A stretch of 54,686 nucleotides of DNA, filler included, from Sphacelaria rigidula (Eukaryota), in the NCBI GenBank assembly GCA_964200075.2. It is 5 parts of 5 records of this genome, joined end to end, with 100 filler letters (N's around TTAATTAATTAA, not from the genome) between each part and the next. Parts side by side here need not be neighbours in the genome. Positions count along the whole stretch, not along the records: positions 32,875 to 43,730 come from CAXNAA020005783.1; 4 more parts are not named here. The stretch is one strand, 5' to 3'. Position 1 is the first letter of the stretch, and the number at the start of each line of letters is the position of its first letter. This document shows positions 21,817 to 54,686 of this stretch, one piece after another. Below the pieces are notes generated by a model. That model did not search any database. It had not been told where the DNA came from and worked only from the letters and a program-made list of their open reading frames with translations. A program made the translations under genes and the position numbers.

Positions 21817-21916
21817 NNNNNNNNNNNNNNNNNNNNNNNNNNNNNNNNNNNNNNNNNNNNTTAATTAATTAANNNNNNNNNNNNNNNNNNNNNNNNNNNN
21901 NNNNNNNNNNNNNNNN
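21817..21916. other. Artificial contig linker
   Basis: N44-TTAATTAATTAA-N44. Confidence 0.99.
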
Positions 21917-27143: not shown

Positions 27144-27174
<31 letters not shown>

Positions 27175-28320: not shown

Positions 28321-29651
28321 CTCTGAGGCTACTGTCAACGACAAGCTCAAGTGTAGCGAGGACGAAGATCCCGCAGGACTGTGCTCTCGACCGCCAGAGC
28401 CAGGAGCCACGTTCCGTTCGTCCATTGCTATTGAGGATGGCGCGTATCTCCGCTCCTGACCAGGGCGGTCGGAGAGAGTAGGGGATGCTCCCAGTCCACC
28501 ACATTTAGCAGTGGGCAGCGCCAATGTCGTGAGTGATGACACAGCGGCCTCCCTTCTCGCGTCGCCATCTGAAACTCGGGTCATTTGATTGACAGTCTCA
28601 ACAACAATCGTTTTATCCTCCAGCTGCTGCGTCGATCTCGGAGCAATGGCCGTAGGAGTCGCACCACTTACCGCCGCCTCACTCCGTAATGCCTCAGTTT
28701 CGATAGCAGCCGTGATACTGGCACTTTCAGGCGTCGCCGAGCACTTTTCGCAATGCGTGCTGCCGCCGCCGACGTCCCGCTGTGGCAACTCAGGCCGCTC
28801 ATCATTGTGTGGTGGTTTCGGTTTCGCAGAAAACAAACTGGCCGGATTTATATCGTGAGGACTACAAGCAGTCCGCGGCGTGTTGTGACAAACGTTACCA
28901 GCATAATCTTCCTTGGAGCAAGGAGGCCGAGATGATTGCTGTGGGTCATATTCTTGTGATGCTAGCGCCAGACTGCTGGCGAGGCCCACCCCGGCCTTGC
29001 TCCAAATCCCACCACAATTTGACGCGGTTTCAACCTGCGGCTTCACCAATGTTCCCGGTGCTTCCAGTGGATATTGTTTCGCGGATGGTGGCGTAAAAAA
29101 ACCACTTCCCAGGACATCCGACTTATCGCCGTCATCTCTGCCATCACACACAGCGGAAGGGCGCTTCGATACGTCAGGTATTTTCCCTCCAGCGCTAGCA
29201 GCACTAGCTGCACTAGCTGCACTAGCTACACCACCACCACTAACACGTGGGCGTTTCCAACGATCATCTCCCGGCGGCTCCACGTTAAGAACACCCTCTC
29301 GCGCACCCACGTTACTTTTGTCTACTACTTGGCTGGTAAAAGATGAAACGCCGGCTGCAGTGGGATTATTTCTCTCATCAGTGACGCTTGCCTCGACACC
29401 CTCCTGCGTCCCTTGTGATGGCATCTGCGAGAGACTGATATTGTCGAGCAGGGTCGCGAACAGCCCAGGCCGCGCCATATTGTTCTGTTCTGGGCGATGC
29501 GGTGGATAAGGTTGTGCCGCCGCCGCCGCTAATCCAACGTCCTGCTGCACAACAATTTGTTCCTGATACCGAGAAGTAGCCGGTGGCGATTCCGGCTTCT
29601 GAGCCTCCGTAGGGGCAGGGGGGCGTCTCTCCGCAATAGTTGCGTCTTCAC
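28321..29651 (-). CDS. Exon 2 of the low-complexity protein gene
   Basis: atgcAG acceptor (phase 1) and GAG|GTAAGA donor (phase 0); same frame as ORF 28252-29550. Confidence 0.8.
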
Positions 29652-29829
29652 CTGCATATATGATTGCCCAAAGTGTACGTTGTACGTCTTATAGATGGCA
29701 CAAAAAGGGCCATGTCAGACTAGCAGCTGCGGTGTTAAGTTCAAGGGTTTGGCCTATTACTGTTGCAGCGGATAATCTGCAGTAGCAGCCAGAAAAAACA
29801 GCAAGTAGACCTCGGGTACCGTGTCGTAC

Positions 29830-30205
29830 CTGCTGCAGATTGCCCCGCGTCTCCGGTGATGTCAGCACCCGCCGCCGCCGGTGCAAAGTCCAGCCTACCG
29901 CGGCCAATGAACCCCCTCATCCCTGCCCGGCTTCCTGGCAATCCGTCCAGTTCAGTTGAGGGGACATCGTCAACAACAGGCCCAGTGCCAGCTGGGCTGA
30001 GCCTTAGAGATGTACGAGGTGGTGTTGGCGTTGGGGACGGTACGGTGTACAGGAAGGCTACAGTACTGCCAGGGCTACCGTTGAGCGGTAGGCCTGACGG
30101 GGAATCTGCCATACCGCTTGGTGTTGGTGCTGACGGTGAGAATCTGACAGCGTCACCACCGCCAACAGCGTCATTTTTTGCTTCCCGTGGGCTTGGGGAA
30201 GGCAT
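29830..30205 (-). CDS. First identified exon of the low-complexity protein gene (true start uncertain)
   Basis: ORF 29741-30205, CAG|GTACGA donor phase 1 matching exon 2; the frame stays open to a TAG at about 30239, so upstream exons may exist. Confidence 0.65.
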
Positions 30206-32774
30206 GGGAAAGGAACCAGCTGGCGGTGTAGGGGGCCGCTACCGCAACCCAGTTGGCAAGCGACACAGTAGTCGCCAGTTTGAAGTCGAAATCGAGTATG
30301 ACCAATTGTACGCGTTACAAAGGTCTAGCCCGGCCTTTGCAGCGCGGGCTTGGGCGTGTTGTCATTTCGCTATCGCCTATCCGGGAATGCTGAGTTTGTT
30401 CGCTCTGGTCCGCTGTAGATCTACCCTACAGAAATACAGCATAGACAGTACTAGTCGTCACTAATCGACGGGACGCAGGGGGTGAGATGGCGCAGCAGAT
30501 GCCTGCCGGCGGGGGGGGGGCGCCGCAACAGCGCAAGCTGAATATTGTGATAGAGGGATGCTGCCATGGCGAGCTGCCCAACATTTATGCCTCAGTGAAG
30601 CGGACGGAGCAGGTGATACACTCATATACTTCTGTATAGCCAAGTCATTGCGGTGCCGTATGGTGCAAGACAGACGCACAGTGTACAACACCTTGCCGTA
30701 GTACATGACCTTGCCGCAGTACATGCGGCACGGTGGGTGACGAGGTATAACACCCCCCCCCCCCTATAGACAGGTTTTTCGGCGCGGATTGTTCTCCAGA
30801 CGTAAAACACAGCACTCCCGAGATGATGAAAAAAATCTACGATGTTTGTAAAGAACGCATGTGCAGACCGGAGGACGTCCCAATTTCCGATAAAGATGAA
30901 AAATTGGCAGTCGGACAACCCAGGGGAAGCTACACTATGTGATCAACGGTTCGTGAGGTCTACAAGCCCTCTTGTCGGTACCGGAGTCTGCATGTCTGCG
31001 AGTACTAGCCAGATGTTGACTATAAAGGAATCACCTGTGAAGCCCGCGAATTGTGTTTGATTGTATATCCTTGAAAAAATGGGCCCCGGACATCTGGAAA
31101 GGTGTTTGTGAGATCCGGGTAAATGAGCTCATATCCGTGCTCTTCAACACGAGAGCGCCTGGACCTTTTTTTTACGTCCTCCCCCGAAATCGGAGCGCGG
31201 TTAAGTTCACGGGCTGCAAAAAGTAGCTACTTGTAACACACATCGCTACTTACTGGTGCACAGTCATAGAAAAACTCTCAGCTACACTCCAGAAGAAGTT
31301 CTATCCAATTGTATCCAGTACAGCACATGAACAGGTGATCGGTATTTAGAATAACAGCTCACTAGCCGGTAATGCCTCGCGCTGGCTAATCCTGCTCCCC
31401 GGGCCTCGTGTCGAACCCATTGTATTTTTTCCTGATCATGCTTGGACAAGAGTTACTTGGACAAACTTGTCAAATAGTTGTATTAACGTCGCAGCCTTCT
31501 CTTCTTGTTTCAGCTCGATGGTACAGCTGTCACCGACAGTACAGCCGTTGGTCGGTGTGCTGAATACGGTCAAGATACAGTCACCCTAAAGGCAAGGTGA
31601 AATATTTCGCAGGGTCAGCAACTCAAAATCCTTCCGGAATTCCTATCGAGACCGTGAAGATCTGAGGGGTATCAACTAGCGTCAAATCCTTTATGAGGAA
31701 ACCTTGCAAACCTTGATGCTAGCGTGCCGCTCGCGTTTTCCGAATGTGAAGGCGGCGCAACGGCTCCCGAGAGCGTAGGTGCCGAGGCACACTTGTTCCT
31801 CAAGTCAAGTCAACTCCGCGACAGTACTGAGTTCTCAAGCTGGAAGAGGTTTCCAACCTCTATCGAACCGTGTAGAGAAATGAGAACCATCGCGTGATGT
31901 GCAACCTTTGGCAGTGAGACGCCGTGTTGTCTCTACACCGCATTGATCTCTTCACTGTGTTGGTACGTTGCGTAGCGCCAGGCGGTGGTCTCTCGCAGCA
32001 GCATGACACCCAGCTCGGCTGAGCAAAGGTGGTATATCCCGAAACGGTGACAGCATCCGGCCTCGTTTGCCGTACGTTGGCTCATATCGACCTCAAATAT
32101 CGTCAGCAATGACCTTAAGAGCATCGCGTGCTGCCTGATAAATGTCGTAGGCGACGGAGTATAGTATCCATCTACGCCTACAAAAACAGTACCCCAGAAT
32201 TATCGATGGCCGTAACCATCGCATGCCGCATGATGAATTTCATAGTCAACGGAGTATCCGTTGGACGCCTACAAAACCATGCTCCAAAATTTACCGGAAC
32301 ATCGGCGGGCAAACTCTTGCATCGTTAGCCATGGGTATTCAAAGGGTTACCGGTCAAGTCTTTGGCGCAAAGGCTCTGTCATTCTTCAATGAAATATCTG
32401 GGGTTAAAATATACCAAAAACAAACGAAAAATTGAAGATGATCCAATGCCTTTCGGATCAAGGCGCATTGGTATAGCACATTGGTACAATACACAAGACA
32501 TGATGTAACCCCTACCCCCCTAGTATACCATCTCATATTACAGTCTTGTGGGGGAAATAATGGACGAATCCACACTAGACAGTGTTATTCCTTTTCAATA
32601 TTATGGAGGCGGTATTTTTGAAGATTAGGCCCCCCAACACAGTACACGAGGCGTCTGATGATACTAAAACTTGACTTATGTGTGGACTGAAGCCGCGGGT
32701 AGGTGTTGACGCAGCAGTTTCCGTGAACCATGGCGTTTTGTGCGCTGCGTAGCTTGAAAGGATGATTATGCACG

Positions 32775-32874
32775 NNNNNNNNNNNNNNNNNNNNNNNNNN
32801 NNNNNNNNNNNNNNNNNNTTAATTAATTAANNNNNNNNNNNNNNNNNNNNNNNNNNNNNNNNNNNNNNNNNNNN
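32775..32874. other. Artificial contig linker
   Basis: N44-TTAATTAATTAA-N44. Confidence 0.99.
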
Positions 32875-33798
32875 GTGGGGTCGTTTGTTTCTTGTCGTGT
32901 TGGCTGGGGTAAAGTACGTTCGCATGCTTGGTAGGCCTGGAATCGGCGCGCATTGCAGAGTGACATCGACTCTGTCGCTGCTAGTCTCAAGCTGGAGCTT
33001 CTCGACTAAATTGGTTTCCCAGAATTTCGAAATGATGTAACACGACGTCCTCTTGCACACTTGACCTTTCCCCGTACCAAGTGTGCGGTCGTTTGTTTCT
33101 TGCCGTGTTGATGGGGGTGAAGTACGTTCGCATGCTTGGTAGGCCTGGAATCGGCGCGCATTGCATGGCGACATCGATTCTGTCACTGCTAGTCTCAAGC
33201 TGGCGCTGCTCGACTCAATTTGTTTCCGAGAATTTCGAAATGATGTAACACGACGTCCTCTTGCACACTTGACCTTGCCCCCGTACCAAGTGTGCGGTCG
33301 TTTGTTTCTTGTCGTGTTGATGGGGGTAAAGTACGTTCGCATGCTTGGTAGGCCTGGAATCGGCGCGCATTGCAGGGCGACATCGATTATGTCACTGCTT
33401 GTCTCAAGCTGGAGCTGCTCGACTCAATTTGTTTCTAAAAAGTTTGAAATGATGTAACACGACGTCCTCTTGCACACTTGACCTTACCCCCGTACCAAGT
33501 GTGCGATCGTTCGTTTCTTGTCGTGTTGATGGGGGTAAAGTACGTTCGCATGCTTGGTAGGCCTAAAATCGACGCGCATTGGAGGGTGATATCGATTATG
33601 TCACTGCGAACACAGGCTCGAGCTGCTTGGCTCAATTTGTGTCCAAGGATTTCGGAATGTAGTTTCGGAACGTCAACTATGCGTCGTGGCTGATGTAACA
33701 CGACGTCCTCTTGCACACTTGATCTTGCCCCCTACCAAGTGTGCGGTCGTTTGTTTCTTGTCGCGTTGATGGGGGTAAAGTACGTTCGCATGCTTGGT
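32875..33798. repeat. Tandem array of ~209-bp units (at least 4.3 copies, truncated by contig start)
   Basis: Unit start gtgtgcg(g/a)tcgtt at 33081, 33290, 33499, 33739 (periods 209, 209, 240). Confidence 0.95.
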
Positions 33799-33850
33799 GG
33801 GCATAGATTCGTGTTTGAATTGGACTTTATATTTCATGTGTTATTTGTAA

Positions 33851-34699
33851 ATGATGATTTCGCACACCAAAATCAAGTTTCTTGTCGACACAGAACGCGT
33901 GGACGCAGGCAGTGTCCACGAGGCTATTAAGGAAAGATACCCCCTTATCCCCTACTGCGGCTTCTACGAGCTGCATAAGGAGATTCGTCTCTACGTTCAA
34001 CCCAAGCAACGGCGATCGGGAGCACAACTTTCGTACATTCTGTCTACACTCCGACCTCCAATCAAGATAAAGGAAATGTCTAAGTATTCCAAAATTGAAG
34101 GGGTATTGTTGGATGAATCCGGAGTTCGGACAGTACATGGTGGAAGACGAGTTTATTCCGAAGCGAGAGTTGGAGGTGCCGTGGCCACTGACAGCACTGG
34201 CCACCAGGGCATCTCTCCAACCAAGAAGAAAACCGTCACCGTGAACCCGTTCGGCCAAGCATCCTTGGGACACATTACTCTGGAGTTGGTCATGGACTTA
34301 GCGACCCGACCCACGTCTTGGGATCGAGTAAATGACTTTGCAAAATAATTGTACAGTGAAGAGGAGAACATGAATTTACGTCTACGGGCCAAGGAGGGCT
34401 ACGTGAAAGTACGCGTTGACGACGGTGAATGGGAGACGAAACCCAAGATACGCGAGTACGACGGGATCACAAAAAACCTTTTGCGGCAATATCGCGAGGT
34501 ATTGAATACTTTCAAAGACAGCATTTCGGAGGATGGTGTGGAGAGGTGTGAGAGGGTTTTAGCCAGCATCGAGTTTGATATGAGCAGCACTGACCCCGAA
34601 TACAGGGAGACTTACGAAATTTTCCGTGAAAACACTGCCACTGTAATCGGGGAAAACATTTTGGAAAAGGTTCGACGAAAGAAGTTAAACCTTGTTTGA
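33851..34699 (+). pseudogene. Intronless ~282-codon gene with one in-frame stop; resembles NCLDV (giant virus) hypothetical proteins
   Basis: ORFs 33851-34348 and 34349-34699 are in the same frame, split by TAA 34346-34348. The pattern NPFGQASLGHIT...LYSEEENMNLR...KEGYVKV...W recalls the NxFGxExLSHI...PENxNI...W domain common in NCLDV proteins (recognised by eye). Confidence 0.6.
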
Positions 34700-34789
34700 A
34701 GATGTGTAGTTGGGGGAGCAAAAATCTGCGGCTTGTGTAACTCTATAGCTTTCGTTTCCTCTCCACCTCATCTTCGCTAATCTCTAGTA

Positions 34790-36122
34790 CATGATCAAAC
34801 CACCGTACTCGTTTGTAGCAAGGCACGGGACAACACGTTCCTGCCATCATTTCTCTAGAGGAGTCGCTATCGCTCGGCGGCGTGCACCATAACACCAGGG
34901 ACTCGTCGAGAGGTATTTGCCTTCTGAACAGAGTATATGTGGGTCCAACAGAAAGTGGGGGTGGGCGGACATCTGGTCCGGCATCTTGAGATCAGTATAG
35001 AAAAGTGGCTTGCTCAGCACGCTCTCGCGGCCGGGTGAGAACAGGTCGGCGTGGTCTAAACATTTGTGAGCATCACATTTTCTCCCGGTACGCGTCGAAG
35101 AGCCTCGGCGATAGGCTCTGGTTGTTGTTGGTTTTGTGGAATGTACCAAATTCGGGCATGCCACTCTCTACTTTCTGGCGTGCTTGCGGCGAGATGAAAA
35201 GGATTGCCATGTGCAAAGTTATCTGTGCTGCATCCGCAAAAAATGCGCGGACAGCTCTAATTCCATCCGTCAGTTGTGAGGCGGAGAACGAAACACTACG
35301 TGCTGTATGGTATCTGAATCAACACCCTCGAGCAGTTGCCCGCGGCACAGGAAGCCGCGGAATGATTCTGCGAGCTGTTTGTTTCTCGCCATCATCATGG
35401 TAGACACAAACATGGTGGATTTGGAAAAGCAAAACATCGCGGTCGTCGCCGCTGACAGCGACGTAATATCGAGGACGTTTGATTCTTTTAGGTTATTCCG
35501 CAGCTGGCTAGCCACATCCTCGTTCCCCGCAAACAGATCCTCGCGCGACACGCGGCAAATGGACTCAATCAAACACTCTAAAACACTCGCTACGCACGAA
35601 TTCTCGCCACTTATTTCCCTTCGCCTCTCAAGAAAACGTAGGCACGCTCTGGTATCAACGGGAAACTTGCGTACCGCACATAACTGATCGCGTCAGATAA
35701 CTTTCCCCGCATCAACCAACAACTCTTGCAACGACGGAGACATAAGTATAAAACTGCACAACATACAAACAAGGACAAATCAGGCAGGGTCGTTGTGGTC
35801 CTCGAGGCACCGACTAACCAGCCTGCCCGACATGGCCGGGGAGAGGTGGTCGCTCAGCCGCTTGATTTTCTTGGCCCGTGAAAGAGTGAGGGGGCCGACG
35901 GGACCGCCGTTGCTGTTGCGGCGGCGGCGGCGGTCAGTCTGTGCCACCTCCGCATCGGGTGCGTGGAAGGCGGGCACCGGTTCCTCCATTTCTGTGTCTG
36001 TGTCACTGTCGGAGATGTCGTGGACGACGGGAGCCGGTTCCGTTACTGCTTCAGTCATCCGATATCTCCGTATCGGAGTTGGTTAGGTCGATGACCTCAC
36101 CGCCAGCGATATTGTCTGCCAT
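34790..36122 (-). pseudogene. Frameshifted, stop-interrupted gene of unknown function
   Basis: ATG at 36122 (MADNIAGGEVIDLTNSDTE); coding-like segments continue in shifting frames through ORFs 35780-36058, 35270-35572 and 34847-35164; a possible acceptor lies near 35755; boundaries approximate. Confidence 0.45.
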
Positions 36123-38070
36123 CCTGAATTGATGGGGATGAGTTTGATTTGTACAGGGAGTGGTGTGTTAAGATCCTGAGTGGCTCTTCGCTGTTGGATA
36201 TCTGCTGTGCATACAGACAAGATGTCACTGCCACACCATGAAAGAGGCGGAGTCAGGGTTGTTTTCCAAACCCACACATTGATCATTCCAAAAGAAAAAA
36301 AGAGCCATGCACGTACAATGAAATGTTTTCTGCTTTGCCGCCAAAACTGCAACTTGGGTATTTGATTTTGCCATGAAAATGTATGCATCGTGTAAACACG
36401 TGAACATAATGCTTCTCTGTGAGCCGGAAACAATGGGGCCGATGAAACAAGCCAGACCAATCTGCTCATGGATTCTATGTTCTCAACTCACGGATTCCAC
36501 ACACAACGCAGTCACGATAGGTGAAGATGAGAGAGGGATAACAATTGCAATCAGGAACAAAGGAACTCGAGTGTTTGAACGAAACGGCATGTTTGTGGCG
36601 TTTTGTTGTGTGCCCACCGGTAGGAGCACATGCAGTAGGATAGATCAGCAACAGAAACAGGATAAAGGTCTTCTTACACGCACGAAAAACAAAGCCGAGT
36701 ACACATATGCTCGTCAAAGCTCCGCTGTGCGTGTGTGTGTCCGGGACTTGTTCACCGTCTTTCTGTTGTTCTGTTTTCAGTTGTATTCTCACCGTAAGGT
36801 TCTGTGGCCCATGTAGGGGAAGGGGCAATTGCCGCCACCTCTCGCACCCAATCCTTGGCATCCCGGTGGCTCTTGGTCCATATATCCCCAAGCTGCAAGG
36901 CCCGCCCACCACACACACACACGCATTCACATCCACGTCGATCCAAGAGCCCAGCCGAAGGCGAGGATGGGTCTAGAGTGCGGGAAATGGCGAGGCGCAT
37001 AAAAAGGAGAATTCACAGGCAAAGAAAGTAAAGGACGATGTGCGCGGTTACGCTACATGAGGGGGTGCGTGCGGGACGCGATGGGATACCTGGGGGGCGG
37101 GCGTTCGCATGACTTACGAAAATCGAGGCAAAAAAAGACAATCTACACCGCTCTTCGCATGGTTTATGGGCATATTGCACATACATTCGAGAGTGTCGAG
37201 GTGGAAAAGTGCCGCGGAAGTTGTTCTGTATGGAGCAAGGCAAGACACGAATATCATTTGATCTAATGCATGCACACACGTGCAACAGCCACGTGCATCA
37301 AGCCAAAGCTTTCCGTGCCATATGGGTATTACATGCGTGGCGCATGAAATCTAAACCGCACGCGACCGGAACCTCACCTACTTAAGACACACACAAAGGT
37401 CTTCTGCCCGTGAAGAAACGGCTCTGTGCTGATCGACAGATGGATTCGGCAAAATCCAAGGACGCGACACAGTAGTGCCGAAAAGGGGCACGGGTGAAGA
37501 GCGCGTAGGGTGCTTCATATCACTGGCCTGCGATGGTAGAGCACAAGTGAAAGAGCGTGGTGAGATTACGGGGCGAAAGGGCGCAAGCACTGGATAAACA
37601 TGGAAAGGGGCGCGTTTACGCTACAGCTGGTCACATGATTGAATCTTGCGCAAAACATGACGGGCGTTTGCGGGACGAAGCGAAGCTTTGTTTCCGGTAG
37701 GTGTGATGGGGTAGAGAGAGGCTAGATACCAGGCAATAGGAGCGCCCGCGCGACTGGGGTTAGGGTAAACAATTTTGAGCATATTTCGGTGAACCATGCC
37801 TACGAGAGATTCTCGAGGTGGCAAAAAGTGAGCGGGTTTTGTTTTAAACTTTGAATTGCAAGACAGTGACACAAATCGTTTGATATGATGCACGCACGCC
37901 CGTGTAACACGCAAGCCAAACCTGAAACCAGGCGACGGCGATAGGATCGAAGAACGCAGTACGCTTCCTCTTCGCCTACTCTACTCCCTCTCGTTGATTG
38001 ACATAGACATCTCTCTCTCTGTGTCCTCTTGAAAAAAACACAGTAGACACACCGCAAAGCACTTGCTCAC

Positions 38071-38214
38071 CAGTTGACCACTCAGCAGGAAATCCCGTGC
38101 CGCCGCTTGCCCCTCCCGACTCTCACCCGCTATGCTTCTCACTGACACTGGTCCCTCATTTCCCCTCCGCCGATCGGTAGCAGACGAATCCCATCGTCCA
38201 AGCTCGTGAATCAC
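38071..38214 (-). CDS. Candidate isolated exon, product unknown
   Basis: tttttctgcgcAG acceptor and CTG|GTGAGC donor; 48 open codons VIHELGRWDSSATDRRR...LLSGQL. Confidence 0.3.
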
Positions 38215-39900
38215 CTGCGCAGAAAAAGGGAGGTGATGGGTGTAGGTAGTTGCGCGTGGCGTGCTTTCGGACTACCTGTGTGCGAGAGAGTGTGAGGAGG
38301 TAAGGGGAGTTGGCCTCACGTACAGCCAACAAGAATGTCTCTGCCCGTCTGATCTCTCTGGTCTCTCTCGCTTATAGCCCGACAAATACAGTTCGTTAAA
38401 CCCCGCGACAGGCATGATCAAGAACGATGCCACTTGAGTATCAAGTGTCGTTGGTCTTTTTTTTCTCTGCCCTTCAGCCACACGCATGGTCCAAAAACAA
38501 AAGGGGGGAGGGCTCTCACCGTTTTCGGTAGATCCAGCCGTCCGACTAGCAGCAACAACAACGAGAGGGTACGGGCGCTGTCCGTGGCGCGTGTCTGCTG
38601 GGGCACCTAAGAAAAGACAACGAGAGAAACGAGAGGCAGAGGTTCATCAATGAGAGCAGGAACATACATGCTAAAACGCATGACAAAAAAAGCGATCGCG
38701 CATGAAGTATTAGCCCAATAACAGGCCTTCAAGCAAGATTCAAAGAGGCGAGGAGTACGCAAAAGGGACATCAAGAGTAAGCTACGCTTCGCCACACTTG
38801 GGGTGTTCTATTTTGTCTCGCCTCTCTCTGGGTTGGGAACAGTCGGCCTCAGAGGAAGTTCGGTGGGTAAATCAAACCACCTTTGGAATGGTCATATCTT
38901 AACGGCAAACGGAGAGAACCCCATGTTCTTTGGTTGCAACAGTACTCAGACAATTTGCACAACGATTCGAACTGCTTTCGAGGAACATTCATTCATACAC
39001 ACATGCAAAATCTACAAATGTAACGGTCAAGAGTAGGAAAAGCGCATATGCCTACCAGACCAAGACGTTAATAAGCATTTTGACAGTGATAGCGCGCGTA
39101 CAATCTTCCATCCATAGTCAGCATTGCTGGTACTTGCAAAAACGCGTGTGAACGCTGACACTGGGCAATCTGGGCACGAAGAACACAACTAGTAATGCCG
39201 TTGCTGCAAGTACTAGTACTGCTGATGCTAACGCGAGAGCGGTGGGAGCAGAAAAAACAATCCAAGCTCGAGGCATTTGGTAGAAAGCTTTCCGAGGACA
39301 ACATAAGTCGAGTTGTAATGAAGGTGCGTATCGTGCCACATGCGTGACACGATAAAAAATGAAGCAACGGAATTCGAAGCTCCCCTGCGGTGCTTTTACC
39401 ACAAGAGATGCTTCGGCGAAAAGAAGGACCACCGCCGCGGCACAAGATAGATCCTCGGAGGATCCAAACGCGCAACCTAGCCGCACCAAAAACAGGGCAC
39501 GCGTGAAGAGTACGGGTAGTCGCGCGTGGCGTGCTTCGTCAACACCTGTGCAGGAAGGGTGTGCGTACAAGCAAAGGGAAAGGGCCGGAAACTGGTCTCA
39601 CAGACAAAGAACTACCTACCTCCCAAAGCCAGGAAAATGAAACAGCAATCCAAAAACAACGCACGCACACATTTCGTAAGACACCGCGACATGGCGATCA
39701 CTGACCAAGGCGATGGATTTTCTGTCGGCGAGATTGATCTTTTTCTCCGCTCTCAAACGATACACGGTTGACAAACATTAATGCAAGTGCGTACCGACCT
39801 CAACGGATTCAACCGTTGATCAGCAGCAACTACAATAATACTGCCCGCTCTCCGTGGCGCGTATCCCGTGAGTCACGTGAACACAGAGACCAAAGAGAAA

Positions 39901-39935
39901 GAGGGAGGGAGGGAGGGAGGGAGGGAGGGAGGGAG
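39901..39935. repeat. (GAGG)n microsatellite
   Basis: About 8 units seen directly. Confidence 0.9.
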
Positions 39936-40137
39936 AGCAGTGTTCATACAACAGGTGGTGGCGGGGGTAGCCGTAGCAGTGGTGACGACTCCGACAACAA
40001 TTCAGACCAGAGCACGGTACCGGAAACCACAGGAACCAAGCGATGCGCTCCGGATTTCAAACCTTCCCCACCGTCTTCGGATTATTAGCACGTAACTTTG
40101 GTGTGGCACGAAGCGCACCCCAGCCTCATTCTAAGCC

Positions 40138-42519
40138 ATGGCCTCTTCTCGTGCCAACAAGCGCGTGAAAGTTTCGTCGTCAACTAAATAATCCGTGACG
40201 ACGCTCAACAACACGGCATTCGACGAGAAAGACGTGGCCGAATCGAAAACGCACACGAAAATGAATTTCCGGTGCCCGGTCACAATCGACAATGTCTTCA
40301 GCGCGCCGACGTCCACGCAGGTCAAGGTGTTCTACGAGTCTAGGAGCAGCACAGGAAAACCTTTTGATCACTTGCCCAACGGCGAAGATCTTGCCTGGAC
40401 CGAGTCTTTCCACGACAACAAGACGTTGATGGGATTCATTGTGTACGCCCAGCTTTTTCCCAAGCTGTTGCAGAACAGAATCAAGCTCAATGCCGCAACG
40501 TACCACTGGGCGCATTTGGACAACTCCTCGGAAAAGGGGAGGACCAAACTCGAGCAACGTCGCCGCGCCGTAGACAGGCTCAAGAGAAATGGGTTCACGC
40601 GCTCGATCTTTATGGGACTTCCGTACAGGGTGGACACCTCGGCAAACATACTGACCTTCATGAAGATGGACGTGGAGGAAGAGGACGAGAGGTTCAGGTT
40701 TTTTACCAAGCGCGAGTTTTCCATGATTTTTTCGAAGCGGGGACAAGTCGGCAGTTCGTCTGTGTACGCCTCGTGCTCCATGGCGCTGTCCCTACTCTGG
40801 TTTGCAACGGCGGTTTTGGCCCGGCCGTGCTGCCTCGAGTCTATCATCCTTCCACTCTCCGTGATGGAAAGGCGAACGATGGAGCAGAGATTCAAGTGCC
40901 CGCCGCAATTTTTCGACGGGCCCATCCGAAGCTTTCAAACCAACTGGAAAGACGTGTTCGCCGCCATCGACACGCAGCATCGGAACATCAACTACACGTT
41001 GCTCGAGAAAGCGTGCGAACACAAGTACATAGAGGGTGTGCACATTGCCGATGTCTATGCCGTATTTCGAGCAACCATGACGGCCCCAGATGACATGAAC
41101 AGCATCGCGGCTTTGGTGCGATCCTACAAACAACATTCGAAGCACGGGGTCGAATCCGGGGCTATTGTCGGCGTCATTGATGTCATCAGGGACAAACCGG
41201 TCGACGCCATTGGTAAAATCGACGGCGGGGTTCTAGGCACCATATTTTCTACCTATGGAGAGAGGGCGTGCCTCAAGGTCCACGCGGAGTGCAAAAGGCT
41301 GGAAGGAGGGTCGTCTCTGTTTGACGACAGTGTCAGCAACAAGCTAAATGAGATTTTGGCGCACTTCGATTGCGAGCTGTGGAAGGCACGGAAGAAGGAC
41401 AAGGTGGAGCGTGTCGTTGCCGCTAACATGGACCCCGCCGGCATGAACAAAAAGATTGAGGGAGGGAAGATGCTCGACCCCACCGACCCGAAATCAATTG
41501 AGCTCATGCACACAATGCTAAAGTCCATCTCGGGGCAGGTTTGGAAACCCCTCAAGAAATTGATTGGGAAAGTGCTGGGGGCAAGCCTCGAGTACCCGGC
41601 CGCCTTCCTGAGCATTACACGGGAAGAGGGAGAACAGCTGTACAAGCACATGATAACTGCGGGCGTTACTTACACCGATATCGCCAACCTCTGCACGCTT
41701 CTTCTCCTGAGCTTCTCTTTCCAGCGCTCCCAGGTGCTGCGAGAATCAACTATCGACGAGTTTGTACTCGCGCCAGACGCGACGCACTACAAGTTTTCCT
41801 TCAAGGGTAGGAAGTTCAAAACTGCATCTTCGGGAGGGGCCTCGTCCGCACCGCCTGTGTCACACTTTATGCTATCGCCAGATCAGTCCATGATCACAAG
41901 GTTCATAGCTACTGTGGGGCACATGTATTGCGGTATACAGTGCTTGGACAATGAAGCAAGGAGGCTGTTTGTTCATTCAGAGGGTCAAAGCTGGACTCAG
42001 AAAGACATATCGTCGGGCTTCAAGAGGATTGGTATGCATTGGTTGGGCATCTCCAATTTTGGACCCCATGTCTGTCGAACCTTTTGGTCCACGCATGCCC
42101 TTAACTCTGGACAAATCAGTGGCTCTAATTTGGAGGACTTCAGTAGCTTTCTACGAGTTTCGAGCACCACTCTGAGAAACAGCTGCATGTCGGCAGCAGC
42201 GAATACCGCCGCGCACACCGTGGGTAACGAAATGTTGGGGGCGGTAGTGAACTCCGCTTGCACGGGAGAAACGACAGAGAAGGGCGCTCGGCCGTAAGGG
42301 AAGAAACTGAGCGCTAGGAGGCTTGGATTTGCGGGAAACATTCGAGCCTCTCTGGCAAAGCACAGCGGTAGCGGTGGACTCCTGTTCCGTGCTTTTTTGC
42401 AGAAGAGGAATGCTTCTCAGCTTGTAGAGGGAGAAACATGGTTTCGTTGGGAGAACGCGTTTTTCAGTCAGAGCGATGAAAGACTGTTTCAACGGTTTGT
42501 GGACAAGGTGAACGCTTAA
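40138..42519 (+). pseudogene. Tyrosine recombinase/integrase with a ~500-aa N-terminal extension, inactivated
   Basis: Single intronless frame from ATG 40138 to TAA 42519 with premature TAA at 40189-40191 and 42295-42297. Motifs FQRSQVLRE (Arg, 41725), FKT (Lys, 41818), GPHVCR (HxxR, 42067-42078) and FLRVSSTTLRNSC, where the expected catalytic Tyr reads TGC/Cys (42184-42186). Confidence 0.82.
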
Positions 42520-43730
42520 ATATATTTATGGAACTTGTCAGTGTAGAAAAGCCCCGCCATTTGGGGCGAGTGTCAAAAAACATTATGTCACAGCAACACT
42601 TGGATGGGTGGCAGGGAGGAGTCACTACTGCTGGTTCGACCGTGCTCAAGGCAGAAATGGGGGTTGTGCAGCTGCTGATACACAACTGTTCCTCACACAT
42701 CGATTTTCAGTCATTTTTCTATCCGACAGGAGGATCTCAAAAGCTTCACAAACGTAAAGCACGCGAAGAGCACTTGTGCCGTTCGCGCATGAGAACATGT
42801 AACCCTTCTTTCCTGATGCTGCCACCGCTGCCGACGCAGACAAAATAATACGATCACGCACGCACACACCTCAATTCTGCACGCAGCTCACCTCTCATAT
42901 TGGTTTCCAGGTTACATAAAGGCCTGAGTCATAGCCACAGCAAAAGGACCATCCCCATCAACCGACCCTGCACTCCATCCCTCCAGCACGTTCGAGATGG
43001 CACGCCCGTTGGCTCCCTCAGCGGCCCGGTAGGCGTATGCGCGTAGTGTTGGCAAAGCGACACCCACCGTGCTACATCGATCGTTCGCAGGCTGCCACGT
43101 ATGAAGAGGACGGCCAGTCGGCCGAAGGTCCTTTTGGCGGCTTTGTCCAGCTGCGTGGTGTAGAATTGAAGAAGAGCGAAAGTGCACGTTGTATTGAAAA
43201 ATAATACTAAATGAAAACACCACTTCTCTCCACCCCTTCGCGTCTCACCGACAGGTACAACAGCAAGCAAGACGGCGCGTTCCTCGGGTACGACAAGGAG
43301 AACAAAAGGGGGAAATCTGAAAGAAAACATCAAAGCGCAGGAAATACTCAGGAGAACCACGGGATCGTGATCGGTCGGCAAGTCGGGATGGTGACCGGTA
43401 CTCATAAATTGAACCAGGTGAAGGCGGGTAGATAGGATGTCGGCCATCGGCTCGGCCATGTTGTTTCACATTCTTTTGAAAGAGAGATCAAGTAGAGCTG
43501 GCATCTCAAAACCTGACCATCAGATTTCAAAATCTGGCTTTCGCAAAACTAAATTGAGTTTTCCAAAATCTGTGAAACTGGTTTCTTGGTACTGAGTGAT
43601 GCTATGGTAGGGGTACACAAATATTTTCTGAGATTAGAATTGTTAGGAGCCCTTTATCTCACCTGAAACACGACTTATGAAAATATGCGAGAGTACACCA
43701 GGATTACTATCACAACGTGCTGGGGATATC

Positions 43731-43830
43731 NNNNNNNNNNNNNNNNNNNNNNNNNNNNNNNNNNNNNNNNNNNNTTAATTAATTAANNNNNNNNNNNNNN
43801 NNNNNNNNNNNNNNNNNNNNNNNNNNNNNN
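43731..43830. other. Artificial contig linker
   Basis: N44-TTAATTAATTAA-N44. Confidence 0.99.
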
Positions 43831-44849
43831 ATGAACGGTCGCAGGGGTAACAGCTACCGCGCCAAAAGGTGATCGTGCTTCGGGTGCGGGAGGTATTACG
43901 CTACATGACTGCCGATCCCGCGAGGAGAAGGGATCCAACTAGCCATGATTAATACCACTTGGAGATGAAACTAGGTGATCAGCTCCGGAATTTAAACACT
44001 GGGGTTGGTCATTGCGCAATTGGGAGTCATGCAAAGATGAACGGGATTCTGCTGCCGTGGAATCTACCATGACAGTCTGATCGAACCCAGTGTACCCGCA
44101 CCACGAACCTGAACCTGTGCCGGCCGATATTGATTCAGTTCTGTGATGTGTCTACTGGCCGAGCGAAAGGCAAGGGGGGGGCACTTCCGCGGCGTGTTGA
44201 CGTCAATCGTTGGTTCCCTAATGTGGGCCTGTGGCAGACAATGGGGAATGAACGCGAAGTGTAATCAGAACGTTCAGAGGGCGACAGCTCACTTACGGGA
44301 GCAGTCGCACTTTCGGGGTTGTCCCACTTTATGCTATTCGGAAACCCGGAGTTTTGTACATTTCCAAAACATCGTCAGATGGTGCGTTTAACATCAGTGG
44401 AGGAGCGGGAATCAATTAGGCGGGGCTTAGCCGTCGTGCAAGGTCCTATCGCGAGGGGATGTTCGCCGTCTCATGATGGCTCCTTTGCATGCGGATAAAG
44501 GGCGCCAGAATGGTATATGGGCAGGCGTGGACAGAAAGCATCAGCGTCCGAGCCTGAAAATACGACTGATTGTACTGTGGTTGAGATTGTTGTGATCACT
44601 ACCGTAGTTACAATATCAAATAGGGGGTGGTCGTTTGAACCGCGCGAATCGCGATGTTGAGGGCGACGGTTTGAACACATACGCACTTGCCAGGTATGCC
44701 AGCATTGTGAGGATTTGGTTCAAAGATAATAATTTGAGCACACCGGACGCGTTTGTGGAAGGGTTATCACAGGTGCGCATCAAATATGTGGGTACGCAAT
44801 CGGTCGCGGTATACCCAGTATGTTCGTGAAACCAAACGCCACAACATTG

Positions 44850-46495
44850 CACACCCTGGACAATACAATATGTTTCCAATATATATAAGTCGATCATATT
44901 GGAATTTTGCGATTTATTGCTGGTGTAATATATATTAGTACCCTTAGACTGCACATGTATTGCGCGCCCAATATATATTGATGTCGTGGGACTGCATACA
45001 TATTGCCCGCCAAATATATATTGGTACTATTGGGTTGAACACATGTTGTCCCATCAGTATATATTGGGGCAGCGTGGGCGACAACACATTGCACGACCAA
45101 TATATATTAGGGTCGCATTGATGAGAACATGTTGACCGATCAATATATATTGGGTCTGCGTGGGTGACAATGTATTGGCCGGTCAATATATATTAGATAT
45201 TAGAAGTATCGTGTACGCCCTAGGAGAGATCCAGACGCGATGGATGCCGGAACCCGTGCAGATGGAGAAAAGCTTTAAAGGGAGCCGCAGAAGTTCGCCT
45301 GCATTTCTGCGGAAAGTTGTCGAATGCGTTCGATATATATATATATATATATGTATACTGGTTAGAAAATATGGTGACAGAAGAGGCGACCTGGTATATA
45401 TGCCTCCTGATACCTATCTGGTCACCGGTGCGGGGCCGCCCATCCCCTTTCCAGCATGTAATGCAAATATCTTGGCTAAACATCACGACGACAGAAAACG
45501 CGGGTCGATATGCGCCTTTTGGTACCCCTGTGGTCACCAGGGCTGTGTTGCTTATACCCTGGACAATCTAATACGTTCCAATATGATACCAATACTTTGT
45601 ATTGGGGCCAGCGCAAATATCCTTTAAATACATATTGTGTTGAGATGTCCTCGGAGGTATTGAAGCAACAACATATATTGCTCGTGTCATGATCATGAAG
45701 TAATATATGTCAACATGTATTGGACGTGCAGTTACTCCGAGAATAAAACATTCAATATATATTGTGCATGCCGGCCGTGTGTGTACTGAAGTGTCTATGT
45801 ATATTGAGTCGAGGCGATGCGTAGCATATTGTTAGCATAGCATATATTGAACGCAAACCATGCAGAATTATTTGTTTTTCCAATATATATTGCGCACGCT
45901 GATCTGATAGCTATTGTGCAGCTACTATATTTTGAACACGCTTGCGGAGGAATACATTGAGCATTTTCGGCTTGTAAAATACGTCTGTGAATGGCGCCCG
46001 CGAACAAAGAACTGCCCACAATACTAATTCCAATACACTTTCCAATCTATATGTTGAAGATCAATGTATTTTGCTACATCAACATGTATTGTGACCATCG
46101 GTTCCCTCGTGTATTGTCCACCCAACATATATTGGACGCAATGACGCACGACATATTGGGGCGGCAATATATATTGGCGCTTCGGGTGTCGAGTATATTG
46201 AATCGTGAATATATTTTGACCTCGGGTGGCAGCAAATATATTATTCGATAAATATATATTGGTGCCTTCTCGCACCAACATATTACTCGGCCAATATATA
46301 TTGAGGTGGCGCGTGTCGTGATATATTGTTCCGTCGATATATATTGCATGTTGCGAGCCTTGATAAATTGACGGCACAGTATATATTGACCCTCTCTCGC
46401 GCCATCATATTGCTCGCCCAATATATATTGACCACCCGACGCCTCCATATATTGAGCGGGCGATATATATTACATATTGTATTATCTAGGGTGTG
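44850..46495. mobile_element. 1646-bp non-autonomous TIR element, family D
   Basis: 24-bp TIR CACACCCT(G/A)GA(C/T)AATACAATATGT; TSD CAACATTG / TAACATTG (7/8); dozens of CAATATAT/ATATATTG motifs. Confidence 0.9.
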
Positions 46496-47609
46496 TAACA
46501 TTGACATGTATCCTCACAGGGGCGGATCGAGTCAGTCCAAATAGTGGGGTCAACGTCACGGTTCCATATCGGTGTTTCCGAAAGTGTCCGTCGACGTGCT
46601 GATTTGGTTTGCTTATCGCCAATGTTTTGGCGCGAAAAGCAAAGGAGAGAATCGACTGGAAAATCCCGACACTCTGATTTCCAGTTCAACTGACGGTATC
46701 GGTCGGCAGAATCGTGAGATCCGCTGCAATTAGCTGCGGTGGAAGCGGGGTGGCATGCAGCACGAGCGGGCAAGCGAAATACACTTGCAACCCAAAACAG
46801 TGCTATATTTATAGTGCAGTACAGACCACGTAGCACAGACAGGATGACCCAGTACAGTGCGGTATCGTGTCGACACACGATATGATACCGGACAGGAAAG
46901 TCACGTGTACTGTGGGATACAATTTATAGGGGCTATAGAGCACAGTTAGTTTAAAGCACGGCCCAGTACGACGCTGCGCAGTACAATCGAGTAGATATAC
47001 ACCGTACATGGCCGCTGTTGTAGGCGAACAGTGCCGTAATTTTCAGTGCCTACAATACGGCACAGATTTTCGACAACGCAGGATAGTCCAGACTGCGTGC
47101 TTGAAGATGCAGCATGTAGTACACTGTTTTACGAACGATAGTTGTCCCGCTTGTGAAGCAACAATCGCAAGCAGTGCAGTGTACAGGAAAAACTGTGAAA
47201 AAAATCGAAACGTAAAACAAAAAAAAAAACGACCTTTGAAAGTTGCGTAATGGCCCATAGCACATTTGTGCAAAATCCCAGGGTTGAACTCCTTGAAACG
47301 GCGTGAAGTTTTGCCGATGATTGTTTTTGGGGTATTTTCCGTGAATCATCTTGTATCTCGACATGTTCCCACTAATTGGAAACGCCCGTCCCTTAAGGTC
47401 AACTGATGTTCTGGGGACTGCGACTTCAGCAGCACTACCCAATGATTTGATGCCGTTGTTGTCGATGGTACTGTCGTGCTGACTAGGCTCGACATCGTGA
47501 AGATGTGCGGCGTAGAAACGGCGAATTCATTTCTTAACCTTCCCCTGCGGGTCCTAACCGGGGCATTTCATGGCACATGTTTATTGTACATTTTACGGTA
47601 CATCCGCAG

Positions 47610-47879
47610 GTGCTTGAGTCACAAAGAACCTCCTACGCAAGCGATGTCTACAGCTTTGGGATCGTGGTTTGGGAGGTGTTCTCCAGGGAATTGCCTTGGG
47701 CGAACAAGACGCGTGCTCGCGATATACTGACCGCCGTACTGAGGGGTATTCGACCTTCGTTCCATGCGGACGCTCCTACGGACATCGTGGACATGGCCAG
47801 GAGCTGCTGGGGTGACGAGCCCGAGGAACGTACTACATTCAGAGCCATCTTGGAGGGCATCAAGGCAAGGGATGGGTGA
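47610..47879 (+). CDS. Terminal exon of a tyrosine-kinase-like (TKL) protein kinase, subdomains IX-XI
   Basis: ccgcAG acceptor; VLESQRTSYASDVYSFGIVVWEVFSRELPW...CWGDEPEERTTF then stop; DVYSFG and CW..P..R motifs; upstream exons not found in this contig. Confidence 0.88.
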   Translation: MLESQRTSYASDVYSFGIVVWEVFSRELPWANKTRARDILTAVLRGIRPSFHADAPTDIVDMARSCWGDEPEERTTFRAILEGIKARDG

Positions 47880-49224
47880 CGGATGATGCTCAACACCGGG
47901 CCCGTTCGCTGAGAGCCGTGCCGTGCGGAGTGTCGATGAAGGGTATTAGACCGAGCTGAGCCGATGTTTTATGCACACAGCAGCCGAACGGGTTACCTCC
48001 TGCATTTTGTTGATTATATGCGAGTGAAGTTCTGACTCGTTTTTCAAGGTGAAGTGTAGGCCTTGATATGGCACCAGAAAAGCACTGTGCCTGTAGAGAG
48101 GGCGTCAAAGATGTAGTATTTTGTGGGTGACCCCGGGTACCTGCTTCACCAACAACGCGTCAGCCCCGCGAAGTGCTGAGGTCTCATGGGGTGTGCTTGC
48201 ATGTCGTGCCTTCAAGACCCCTACTGCTTTTTCCGGCGATGTAACGAAAAGTCGTCCTTTGTCTGTCTGTTATTTCTTCCGTGTTTATGATGTTTGTCTC
48301 CAAATTTTCGATAGTGTCAGCCAGTATGAGTTATCCTTGTATTCTTCATAGCATGTTTCCCCCCGCGAAGTCAAGGCCGCCGGACAAATTATTTTCGGAC
48401 GCTTGATGACATTCTTCGATGGAGGCCAATATAGCTCGACCGCCGACCGCCTCCGAAGTCATGAAGAAGCGCTGTTTTATTATATCTAAGCACACGGTTC
48501 TCTTCGCCCCTTCGAGGCTCTCTACTTGTGTTTATACCCCCCACTTTTTGGACTTTCCAGTATAGGTTTGCTTGACGTATCCGCTGGGGTCAAAACCGGA
48601 GGTAGAATTATTGCTTTGCATATTTCTTTCATATTGGTGTTGGGTGTGCCTCTGTTACTTCGCTTTCTATTTTCATGGATCGTTGTAGCCAAAATAGTAT
48701 ATTGTCCTGTCACCTCTTTCCCAACTTGTGTTTTCATAGGTTCGTTTTCGATCAGATGTCCTTGTCCCCTCTCCGTGATGCACTTAAACGTTTTTCGTTC
48801 CTTCAGTGTGTGAGCGTGCATGCTTTTCGTGTGATTCTTCCCAATCTGTTCTGGGGCACCAAGTGGTATATGTTTCGGCCTTAACGAGAGCACCACCAGC
48901 CTCTGGTTCTGACTCAGTACGTTGATATGCTTCGCTGGGTGATGAAGATGTCTTCTTGCTGTATCGAATCTCGAAAACCACGATGATCGGAAAGCGCGGT
49001 TTCCGATCTAGGGCAGAGGTACCGACAATGATACGTATATATTTTTAGTCTGTGCTTTGAAGATTTCTTGTTCACCAAACAGTGCATCAATAACCATCCC
49101 ACCGATTGCCACTTGGATAAATTCCACATACTAACGACTTCTCCAACTTCTACACGGATCTTTGACCCTCACATCTATTCATATCATCCATTCACACGCG
49201 GCGATTTGGTCCCCCCCTCCGTCT

Positions 49225-49875
49225 CTCCAGAGGGTGTCCACGGAGTCACTCTAGGAAGATGCCACGGATACGGCCGCCCTCCAGTTGGGTACGTTTTGAT
49301 GTCCTAAAGAGGGAAGGTATCACGTCCTGTCCCCTCCAGGAGCATCCATGGAGTCACTCTGGAGAGATGTCACGGATACGGCCGTCCTCTAGTTGGGTAC
49401 ATTTTGCTGTCCTCAAGGGGGAGAGCATCACCTCCTGTTCCCTCCGGAGGGCATCCACGGAGTCACTCTGGAGGGATTCATGGAAAAGGTCGTCTTTCAG
49501 CTGAGTACATTTCGGATCCGACGAAGAGAGGACATCGCCTCCTGACCTCTCGAGAGGGACAGAGCATGCATACCTCTAAGGGAGAAGGGGGTGGACAAGA
49601 CTCTAGAAGCGAAAAGGAAGCCAACCGTGCAGAGGGATCTCGACCCCCTGCATGCCTCCTGACGGCATCCACGGAGCCACTCTAGAGGAATGCCATGGAA
49701 AAGGTCGCCCTCTAGCTGAGTACGTTTTGGATCTCATGGAGGGAGGATATCACCTCCTGCCCGCTCCTGAGGGACCGAACAAGCATTCCTCTAGAGGAGA
49801 AGGGCGTGGACAAGACTCTAGAGGTGGACGACGAGTCAAGGCTCTGGCAGGATATCGACCTCCTACATCCCGTAG
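49225..49875 (+). repeat. Diverged ~108-bp tandem repeat, about 6 units
   Basis: tcca(c/t)ggag(t/c)cactct at 49237, 49345, 49454, 49668; the last four units alternate A-B-A-B. Confidence 0.8.
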
Positions 49876-49936
49876 GAAGGAGAGGGCACCAGCGAACCTT
49901 CTACAGGGATCGAGGGTGCCCCACAGAGGCCAATAG

Positions 49937-50235
49937 CAACAATGATTTCGTGAAATTTAGAGTCCAGGGTACGATGAAGAGTCAGGAGTGATCAGCTGAT
50001 GAATGCAATGTCCAAGTTTCGAAATGCACCTCCACGAGACCCGATCCACTTTCTGCAGTAGCCTACCACTGAGGCCTTTGATATTCCTGAAAAGGATATC
50101 GACGTGTAGCTGTAAGCACACGGCAGTTACAGGCAAAACAAAGCACACACAAAATGGAAACCTGGCGAAGTTAGAGCGTTAACAGAACTCGCTCTCAATC
50201 AACGCTGAACTCTCAATTTCACGAACACATCGTTG
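49937..50235. mobile_element. 299-bp MITE, family F
   Basis: Imperfect TIR CAACAATGATTTCGTGAAATTTAGAGT vs CAACGATGTGTTCGTGAAATTGAGAGT; possible 2-bp TSD AG; same terminus at 54635. Confidence 0.7.
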
Positions 50236-50710
50236 AGCGTGGTATTGGATCCGCTGGGGGCTTCTGTGACCCCCCGACACAACAGAGGGGACAAATCGAC
50301 ATTCACGGGCTGGCTACGTGGGCACGAGACCGTGGGCTCGAGAGCCCTCTACACGATGGAATGCGGTGCCATCCAACCACAATTCGACGATTTGCTGTCT
50401 ACACAGAGAGACAAGAAGCAACCTGAGCAATACAAGAATATACACGACTCGCTGACGAAAAAAACAGCTTCAATAGAACAACTGCTGCTGTGCAACGTTG
50501 GCAAACAAAGGATACACCCCCCAAGACCAGGGCCACCCACAAAATGACCCGAACATATTCACTTCCCTCTCCCGACAACAATCAAACCGGAACCTGCTGG
50601 CTACTTCTATTTCCTTTGCTATTATGTTTTTTTCCCTTTCTTCTTGGTAATTTTATTCGTATTTCTTCTTCTCTACGTTTCTCCCTTATCCTTTTTTTTT
50701 CTCCGATACC

Positions 50711-54634: not shown

Positions 54635-54686
54635 CAACAGTGTTTTCGTGAGATTGAGAGTAGATGATACGATTGAGAGTGGCTTT
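54635..54686. mobile_element. Terminus of a second family-F element abutting or inserted into the satellite
   Basis: CAACAGTGTTTTCGTGAGATTGAGAG matches the family-F TIR; it cuts a satellite monomer at ...catagA. Confidence 0.7.

Follow-up and report, generated by a model that had tools for sequence, protein, structure and literature searches.

EsV-1-213, the integrase of Ectocarpus siliculosus virus 1, is a protein of 786 amino acids (aa) that was described as a "large putative integrase/recombinase" without a counterpart; in the sections of that report dealing with the gene, only its C-terminal tyrosine-recombinase domain resembles phage integrases, and two homologues of it, 213h1 and 213h2, 56% identical, are placed in algal DNA (Delaroque & Boland 2008, PMC2373305). 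The parts of a later paper that treat the integrase describe a tyrosine recombinase as universal in the endogenous viral elements (EVEs) of Ectocarpus, usually near one end, regard it as the integrase conserved in phaeoviruses, present a model of the EVEc integrase that resembles XerH, and propose CC dinucleotides between AT-rich inverted repeats as the sites where the integrase inserts the circular virus (PMC13236599). According to the passages of another paper on these genes, algal genomes carry EsV-1-213-like genes outside viral elements, and the catalytic site is missing in the Porterinema ones (PMC11890097). Where the catalytic site is described in the two sources, the four invariant residues of the EsV-1-213 family are Arg, His, Arg, and Tyr (PMC2373305, PMC11890097). 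In this work we analyzed a stretch of 54,686 nt from the brown alga Sphacelaria rigidula (GenBank assembly GCA_964200075.2), called the window in the following text, in which five parts of five records are joined end to end with filler letters between them. The part taken from CAXNAA020005783.1 (positions 32,875-43,730) contains a disrupted integrase gene that belongs over its full length to the phaeoviral integrase family EsV-1-213/FirrV-1-B4. The frame is very probably a solitary, recently decayed copy of such a gene in ordinary brown-alga chromosomal DNA. The family, as well as dead solitary copies in algal DNA, are already in print, and the window locus is the same phenomenon.

The coordinates of the gene and its parts are listed in Table 1. 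Translation gave a frame of 793 codons with only two in-frame stops inside it. The uninterrupted open reading frame (ORF) between both stops (40195-42297 in the ORF list) encodes 700 aa, and residue numbers given here refer to this ORF. The whole frame is collinear with homologues of ~780-800 aa, and the alignment contains neither a frameshift nor intron-like gaps, in agreement with the original prediction of a single intronless ~793-codon frame split by two TAA codons. It also has the architecture of the family (793 codons versus 690-800 aa), a large N-terminal part followed by a C-terminal tyrosine-recombinase domain. For comparison we used four loci: 22 kb around an EsV-1-type integrase (L001), a 12.8-kb metagenome relative of L001 (L002), and two short metagenome contigs with 74-80% identical integrases (L003 and L004). 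The second in-frame stop comes 36 codons after Cys 664, and the tail that it cuts off shares 55-77% identity with the tails in L001-L004.

Table 1. Positions in the window of the integrase pseudogene, its domains, motifs, and lesions.
Feature	Position	Strand	Basis or remark
Whole pseudogene frame, EsV-1-213-like phaeovirus-type integrase	40138..42519	+	793 codons and terminal TAA (42517-19); translation, homology
First in-frame TAA, codon 18	40189..40191	+	Sense codon in homologues
N-terminal ~415-residue, mostly helical, family-specific module	40195..41439	+	AlphaFold2 model of the module alone, pLDDT 85.0, pTM 0.85
Predicted tyrosine-recombinase catalytic domain, ORF residues ~415-700	41440..42294	+	VIA-align on whole model, weak PF00589
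Arg of F-Q-R-S-Q, putative catalytic Arg I	41725..41727	+	R in 37/37 homologues
Lys of F-K-T, putative catalytic Lys	41818..41820	+	K in 37/37 homologues
Private His for Asn, ORF residue 594	41974..41976	+	Asn in all 27 other aligned rows
H-V-C-R (HxxR motif)	42067..42078	+	H in 36/37, R in 37/37 homologues; inside Pfam PF00589 stretch 587-639
Private Arg (CGA) for Gln, ORF residue 654, in L-Q-V-S motif	42154..42156	+	Q in 37/37 homologues
TGC = Cys replacing family-invariant Tyr (putative nucleophile), ORF residue 664	42184..42186	+	Alignment; motif reads S-Y-M in family
Second in-frame TAA	42295..42297	+	Cuts off conserved last 73 residues; sense codon in homologues
C-terminal tail conserved in the family, 73 codons, with the usual stop at its end	42298..42519	+	Alignment with homologue tails

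Next to the two stops, the catalytic motifs themselves carry changes, which we counted in an alignment of 37 homologues, viral members included. The order R...K...HxxR noticed in the original prediction is kept in the window copy. At the nucleophile column Tyr is found in 37/37 homologues and Cys in 0/37, which upholds the proposed Tyr-to-Cys loss. A further claim, that the usual LGH reads LRV, refers to 42151-59 and stands in part: the Arg for Gln is private to the window copy, while the missing His/Trp before the Tyr is a trait of the whole family, which reads L-Q-V, and indeed Q-V-S, in 37/37 homologues. The catalytic roles of the named residues are putative, assigned from the motif order and the literature. 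Of the four invariant catalytic residues, the window copy keeps Arg, His, and Arg, and has lost the Tyr to Cys. Alignment A1, with 27 other rows, contains three private changes of the window copy at invariant columns, N594H, Q654R, and Y664C, all of them in the catalytic domain; the eight nearest relatives have 0-1 changes at such columns and more divergent rows up to 6. Two stops and three private substitutions make up five changes in the window copy that inactivate it or are suspect; it belongs to the family by descent and no longer works.

A word-indexed search returned 70 proteins at E≤0.001, and nearly all the named ones are from brown algae (Ectocarpus spp., Pylaiella, Scytosiphon, Sphacelaria, and Hapterophycus). 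Many are full-length, with 49-92% identity to the window protein, and intact ~793-aa copies with all motif residues are common among them. When IMG/VR was scanned once with the alignment of the family, the one locus obtained was on an EsV-1-type viral contig of 335,593 bp, whose integrase ORF shares 57% identity with residues 1-700 of the window protein. In the tree this viral-contig ORF and protein P0039 are nearest neighbors, with branches of ~0.01-0.02, and the 90%-identity cluster of P0039 includes EsV-1-213 [Ectocarpus siliculosus virus 1], a protein of 786 aa whose contig measures 335,593 bp. The likeness to EsV-1-213 (AAK14627) and its EVE orthologues consists of the length, a collinear full-length alignment at the stated identity, the same N-terminal module and C-terminal tyrosine-recombinase domain, and the motifs F-Q-R-S-Q, F-K-T, H-x-x-R, L-Q-V-S, and S-Y shared by the family of the window copy. 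The window copy differs from EsV-1-213 in belonging to another clade, in lying outside a viral genome or its end, and in its two stops, the Cys for Tyr, and two more private changes. Remoter matches were FirrV-1-B4 [Feldmannia irregularis virus a], a putative integrase [Feldmannia species virus, FsV], and a protein of Tribonema minus. The N-terminal 415 aa alone match FirrV-1-B4 (E 8.7e-16) and the FsV integrase (E 3.9e-15), and the sequence matches to these two viral proteins extend into the N-terminal module at 32-39% identity. Both keep all motif residues; unlike the window copy they are shorter (689 and 703 aa, respectively), much more divergent, intact, and virus-borne. The full-length placement in a described phaeoviral integrase family leaves no place for the suggestion that the gene is possibly of an undescribed family.

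The phylogeny was a quick maximum-likelihood IQ-TREE tree of 51 rows, from which proteins <650 or >950 aa were left out together with P0001 (the window's own protein), P0069, and P0071. The window copy groups with P0002, P0020, P0003, P0012, P0004, and P0005 in a clade of 7 rows (support 100). Its terminal branch is 0.039, versus 0.046 and 0.083 for the nearest intact neighbors, and there is no indel between it and the 92%-identical P0002. Because the terminal branch is no longer than those of intact neighbors and no indel has accumulated relative to P0002, we concluded that the decay is recent; the recent inactivation by point changes that had been proposed therefore holds. The 90% clusters around P0002 and P0003 carry the labels Pylaiella, Ectocarpus spp., Hapterophycus, and Laminaria digitata, often with several members per genome. 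Such near-identity across genera and the several copies per genome would fit a recently mobile agent, and the Laminaria label may stem from mislabeling via filamentous brown-alga endophytes.

To place the protein structurally, an AlphaFold2 model of the 700-aa ORF was built (mean pLDDT 78.5). The top VIA-align matches were XerH (5jjv_A, Z 9.3, 317 residues aligned, rmsd 6.7), a Staphylococcus aureus integrase (3nkh, Z 9.1), and Cre (1kbu, Z 8.8), and Z values of 7-8 were reached by type IB topoisomerases, XerA, and Tn1549 Int; each of the top 23 rows covered model residues ~415-690 and was a recombinase, a type IB topoisomerase, or a phage repressor of the recombinase fold. In the model the C-terminal ~280 residues thus have the tyrosine-recombinase fold, and together with the phaeoviral relatives this bears out the prediction of a tyrosine-recombinase-type integrase of a DNA virus or element. 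The EVEc integrase, in the section of PMC13236599 on its model, has the same best structural match, XerH 5jjv. Foldseek against BFVD matched the whole model to FirrV-1-B4 over 696 columns (E 3.9e-18), a full-length structural match, and to the Feldmannia species virus protein (E 3.7e-6), and found nothing else in BFVD at E≤0.001. Against PDB the whole model gave no Foldseek row at E≤0.001 (Cre rows had probability 0.95 and E 0.35); a PDB search by sequence with the single protein gave nothing relevant (best E 0.71, a nitrite reductase), and the best PHROGs match was only phrog_1 integrase at E 0.3. XerH, Cre, and lambda Int (PF00589) share with the family the catalytic fold (Z 8-9) and the order R, K, HxxR, Y, with PF00589 weak here; in contrast, bacterial and phage recombinases have a core-binding domain of ~100-130 residues instead of an N-terminal part of ~415 residues, and His or Trp is usual where the phaeoviral family has Gln-Val.

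The N-terminal module, modeled separately, had no Pfam match and no PDB match by Foldseek at E≤0.001, and the original description of it as unrecognized was a fair one. In a wide VIA-align search the best Z for the N-terminal model was 4.4, with none ≥5; the N-domains of XerH, Brujita Int, and Ndc10 reached Z 3.7, tied with spectrin-like bundles. In the whole-model VIA search the alignments of XerH, IntI4, and lambda Int begin at residues 76-81, and the module is possibly a much-expanded core-binding domain. Residues 1-415 scored at best 0.86 in the ESM Atlas, under the level often reached by shuffled proteins. Among 1.84 billion cluster representatives, a phmmer search with the N-terminal part picked out only 34 proteins at E≤0.001, and the six that were looked up are phaeoviral integrases, one Tribonema protein, or unnamed. 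The unrecognized N-terminal half is a constant part of the phaeoviral integrase family, noted already in 2008 (PMC2373305), rather than a sign of a new family.

The lesions were checked in Logan contigs of four sequencing runs (X1, X2, X4, and X6), that is, in contigs rather than raw reads. X1 contigs show 0 differences from the window over 39947-42736, and the one spanning the Cys codon is identical over 41892-42736; X1 is possibly the source sample of the window assembly. X2, another sample with the same study and organism label, has 0 differences over 39943-40488 and 42258-42764, so that both stops are covered. In X4, an algal metagenome from another study, the window letter at 40189 is kept as the minor letter (depth ~27/105), and a contig across the second stop (42258-42736) has 1 difference. 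X2 and X4 also hold a second related copy, ~87-90% similar, with no stop at codon 18, and X6, with another organism label, contains only a form of the copy with a sense codon at the first-stop position; for the second copy and X6 the state was read at codon 18 only, from the best-supported differences listed. Since matching contigs come from X1, X2, and partly X4, the lesions are unlikely to be assembly artifacts.

We then compared the surroundings of the gene with the four comparison loci. Outside the ORF the window is without resemblance to L001-L004: the homology is confined to ~40.19-42.52 kb, and one stray tblastx segment to these loci reaches 42866. Stop-to-stop frames of ≥200 aa occupy 0.05 of 30001-40137 and 0.00 of 42520-54686, versus 0.63 of L001 and 0.74 of L002. 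In 21 flanking frames there was no Pfam match at the gathering threshold, and the few weak ones were not to viral hallmark genes. Reverse transcriptase (RT) and RNase H had no Pfam match in 16 frames of ≥150 aa across the window and 5 more near the gene, as the original prediction had it; DIRS and Ngaro elements, by comparison, have RT and RNase H beside the recombinase. The integrase family usually lies within an integrated viral genome, near one end of it, and the window copy was not found in such a location. Integrated genomes of this kind have CC-CC junctions with the host and conserved sequences at the left and right ends (attL/attR). We concluded that the integrase gene stands alone in host-type DNA. 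Solitary or tandem genes in algal DNA outside viral insertions have likewise been described in the relevant sections of earlier papers, namely 213h1 and 213h2 (PMC2373305) and the Porterinema fluviatile genes (PMC11890097): 213h2 has 788 aa, the 213h genes are ~56% identical to EsV-1-213, and some EsV-1-213-like genes are truncated or without catalytic site. The likeness of the window copy to them is drawn from these published descriptions. In two of the comparison loci, ORFs for RING-finger proteins (PF13639) are found within a few kb of the integrase: 1705-2349 (-) in L003 (E 2e-6) and 3128-4204 (+) in L001 (E 3.3e-7). The L003 ORF lies on a metagenome contig with a 74%-identical integrase and a dense ORF context, and the EsV-1-type locus has the same neighbor.

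The reading that the frame is a solitary, decayed phaeovirus integrase gene builds on family membership, fold, lesions, the lack of detectable viral neighbors, and recent decay, each of them found in this analysis. Intact members consist of a helical, family-specific N-terminal module of ~415 residues and then the tyrosine-recombinase catalytic domain. From the literature and the motif order, an intact enzyme would cleave DNA by the invariant Tyr, helped by the R-K-H-R set; according to the literature, it would recombine the circular viral genome into the host chromosome at CC flanked by AT-rich inverted repeats, and excise it again. The window copy probably arrived with a virus or with virus-derived DNA. 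It cannot recombine because the nucleophile, the first 18 codons, and the conserved 73-residue tail are gone.

Several points weigh against this reading. The Pfam match to PF00589 in the window copy is 12.9 bits (E 0.098) and the gathering score is 27.1; PF00589 is found at E≤0.1 in 16/28 family members (best 2.2e-5), and FirrV-1-B4 reaches 23.9 bits. The family profile searched against PDB sequences found nothing, and Cys 664 is placed at the putative nucleophile position by the sequence alignment. In the quick tree the window copy and the EsV-1-type sequence fall into two different clades, of 7 and 9 rows, respectively (support 100 for each), and none of the members of the window's clade was traced to a viral genome in this analysis, the IMG/VR scan having given the EsV-1-type contig only. 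Finally, the lack of viral neighbors was assessed by open frames, by Pfam, and by comparison with viral-type DNA of 22 kb and 13 kb, so that badly decayed viral genes could be missed.

A different explanation is that the clade of the window copy represents the recombinase of a compact ~3 kb, single-gene, self-moving, Crypton-like element of brown algae, related to viruses and not carried by them, and that the locus is a dead insertion of it; we consider this unlikely. The second copy in X2/X4 aligns only from ~40080, with 58 nt of its contig unmatched upstream, and runs at least to ~42840, and the summed depth is back to the single-copy level by ~43050; however, these limits of a ~3 kb unit are drawn from a few short Logan contigs, which break at repeats. 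The lack of detected viral neighbors fits such an element, as do the solitary copies in algal DNA described in parts of the literature (PMC2373305, PMC11890097), but solitary genes are also left by the decay of a viral insertion. Proteins ≥90% identical occur under several genera (Ectocarpus, Pylaiella, Hapterophycus, and Laminaria, the last label perhaps reflecting endophytes as said above), with several copies per genome, some of them on contigs of 270-580 kb, and intact copies with all motif residues are frequent. In the sections of the curated Ectocarpus transposable element paper that bear on the question no such element is named: "Crypton" is found 0 times and "recombinase" once, for DIRS elements. 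No credible inverted or direct repeat was found as an element end around the ORF, the best inverted repeat there being 21 nt at 76%, and neither termini nor a target-site duplication nor an empty site was seen. That viral DNA carries related clades is indicated by the RING-finger ORF near the 74%-identical integrase in L003, a neighbor found in the EsV-1-type locus too. Cryptons are tyrosine-recombinase DNA transposons whose recombinases group together in sequence and which have short direct repeats at their ends. By description only, they resemble the present case in the single recombinase gene, the absence of RT and of visible terminal inverted repeats, and a stramenopile genome with several copies; they differ in that no Pfam match to any Crypton-associated DNA-binding domain was found here and the nearest relatives, by sequence as well as structure, are giant-virus integrases.

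It is still less probable, and in our view very unlikely, that the frame is a host-domesticated recombinase gene at a fixed algal locus, lately lost in this lineage. X6 contigs cover most of 37.2-43.5 kb at ≥85% likeness, with an ORF ~89-97% alike, the downstream flank to 43386, and a sense codon in place of the first stop, which is compatible with an orthologous locus that predates the divergence of the two organisms; yet this orthology is deduced from short contigs only. The family is multi-copy and near-identical across genera, which speaks for mobility rather than a fixed host gene, and the window copy has, besides its two stops, the three private substitutions at columns of the catalytic domain that are otherwise invariant. 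That the gene is intact in the organism, with both stops and the Cys being assembly or sequencing errors, is extremely improbable: only a single base separates each of the three from a sense or Tyr codon, and the best-matching run, X1, is possibly the very sample behind the assembly, but X2 and in part X4 reproduce the stops as described above, and five separate private changes in one gene are improbable as errors. The solitary decayed phaeovirus integrase gene remains our preferred explanation.

Other features of the window are noted here. Upstream of the integrase, a G+C-rich block (0.54-0.58) at 23413-29688 (-), within 22-30 kb, contains low-complexity Ala/Pro/Ser/Gly-rich frames of 331, 1042, and 478 aa. 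The 1042-aa frame, 24517-27642 (-), had no homologue among proteins of 573-1824 aa and no Pfam match. The frames at 23.4-29.7 kb are probably disordered exons of a host gene and not viral genes. Directly after an N block, 32875-33659 is made up of 3.8 tandem copies, 90% alike, of a 209-nt unit. The frame at 33851-34699 (+) has 282 codons and one stop at 34346-48; its second part seems protein-like and its first part matches Pfam Transposase_29 (PF21804) weakly and below threshold (E 0.017). The frame lies ~6 kb upstream of the integrase and is possibly what remains of a transposase.

On the downstream side, a very high-copy repeat starts exactly at 43594 (43594-43700, into the N block at 43731). 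The summed contig depth at 43594 goes from ~17-47 to 160,000-470,000 (X1, X2, and X4), and hundreds of unlike loose ends precede 43593/43594. A joint 39096 -> 43594 in X4 was considered as an empty site and rejected: it is one contig with 21 letters on the short side, and its right side abuts the repeat with summed depth >100,000 that starts at 43594. In window coordinates, 2.4 kb downstream of the integrase, a 1.66-kb block (44842-46503) is bounded by 32-nt inverted repeats (44842-44873/46472-46503, 84% complementary) and holds 16 copies (≤1 mismatch) of the palindrome CAATATATATTG with a period of 42-43 nt, where 0.07 copies are expected by chance. The array is absent from L001-L004, and the block looks like a foldback or MITE-like non-autonomous element, separate from the integrase. 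A satellite of ~3.9 kb (50716-54636) has a 62-63-nt unit, higher-order periods of 125, 192-196, and 317-320, and a strong C-over-G skew. Runs of N are found at 10445-10454 (10 N), 10859-10958, 21817-21916, 32775-32874, and 43731-43830, with four pairs of 44-N runs every ~10.96 kb; the paired runs look like masks or joins between pieces and not biology, and for the window's own protein the longest contig on record has 10,856 nt.

If the solitary copies outside viral insertions move themselves, they would be a new transposon type. Should the autonomous-element explanation be true, the ~3 kb element, moving inside single genera of brown algae and from one genus to another, would give the stramenopiles a tyrosine-recombinase DNA transposon of a new type. 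The phaeoviral integrase would then either derive from this element or have given rise to it, and the 415-residue N-terminal module, with a fold unmatched in PDB, would be the DNA-targeting part of the element. With no relative in PDB and only 34 sequence relatives, the module offers no ready explanation of how the integrase recognizes its minimal CC site. For annotation, the locus itself is an EsV-1-213-like integrase pseudogene, a further decayed remnant of the long association that brown algae have had with phaeoviruses.

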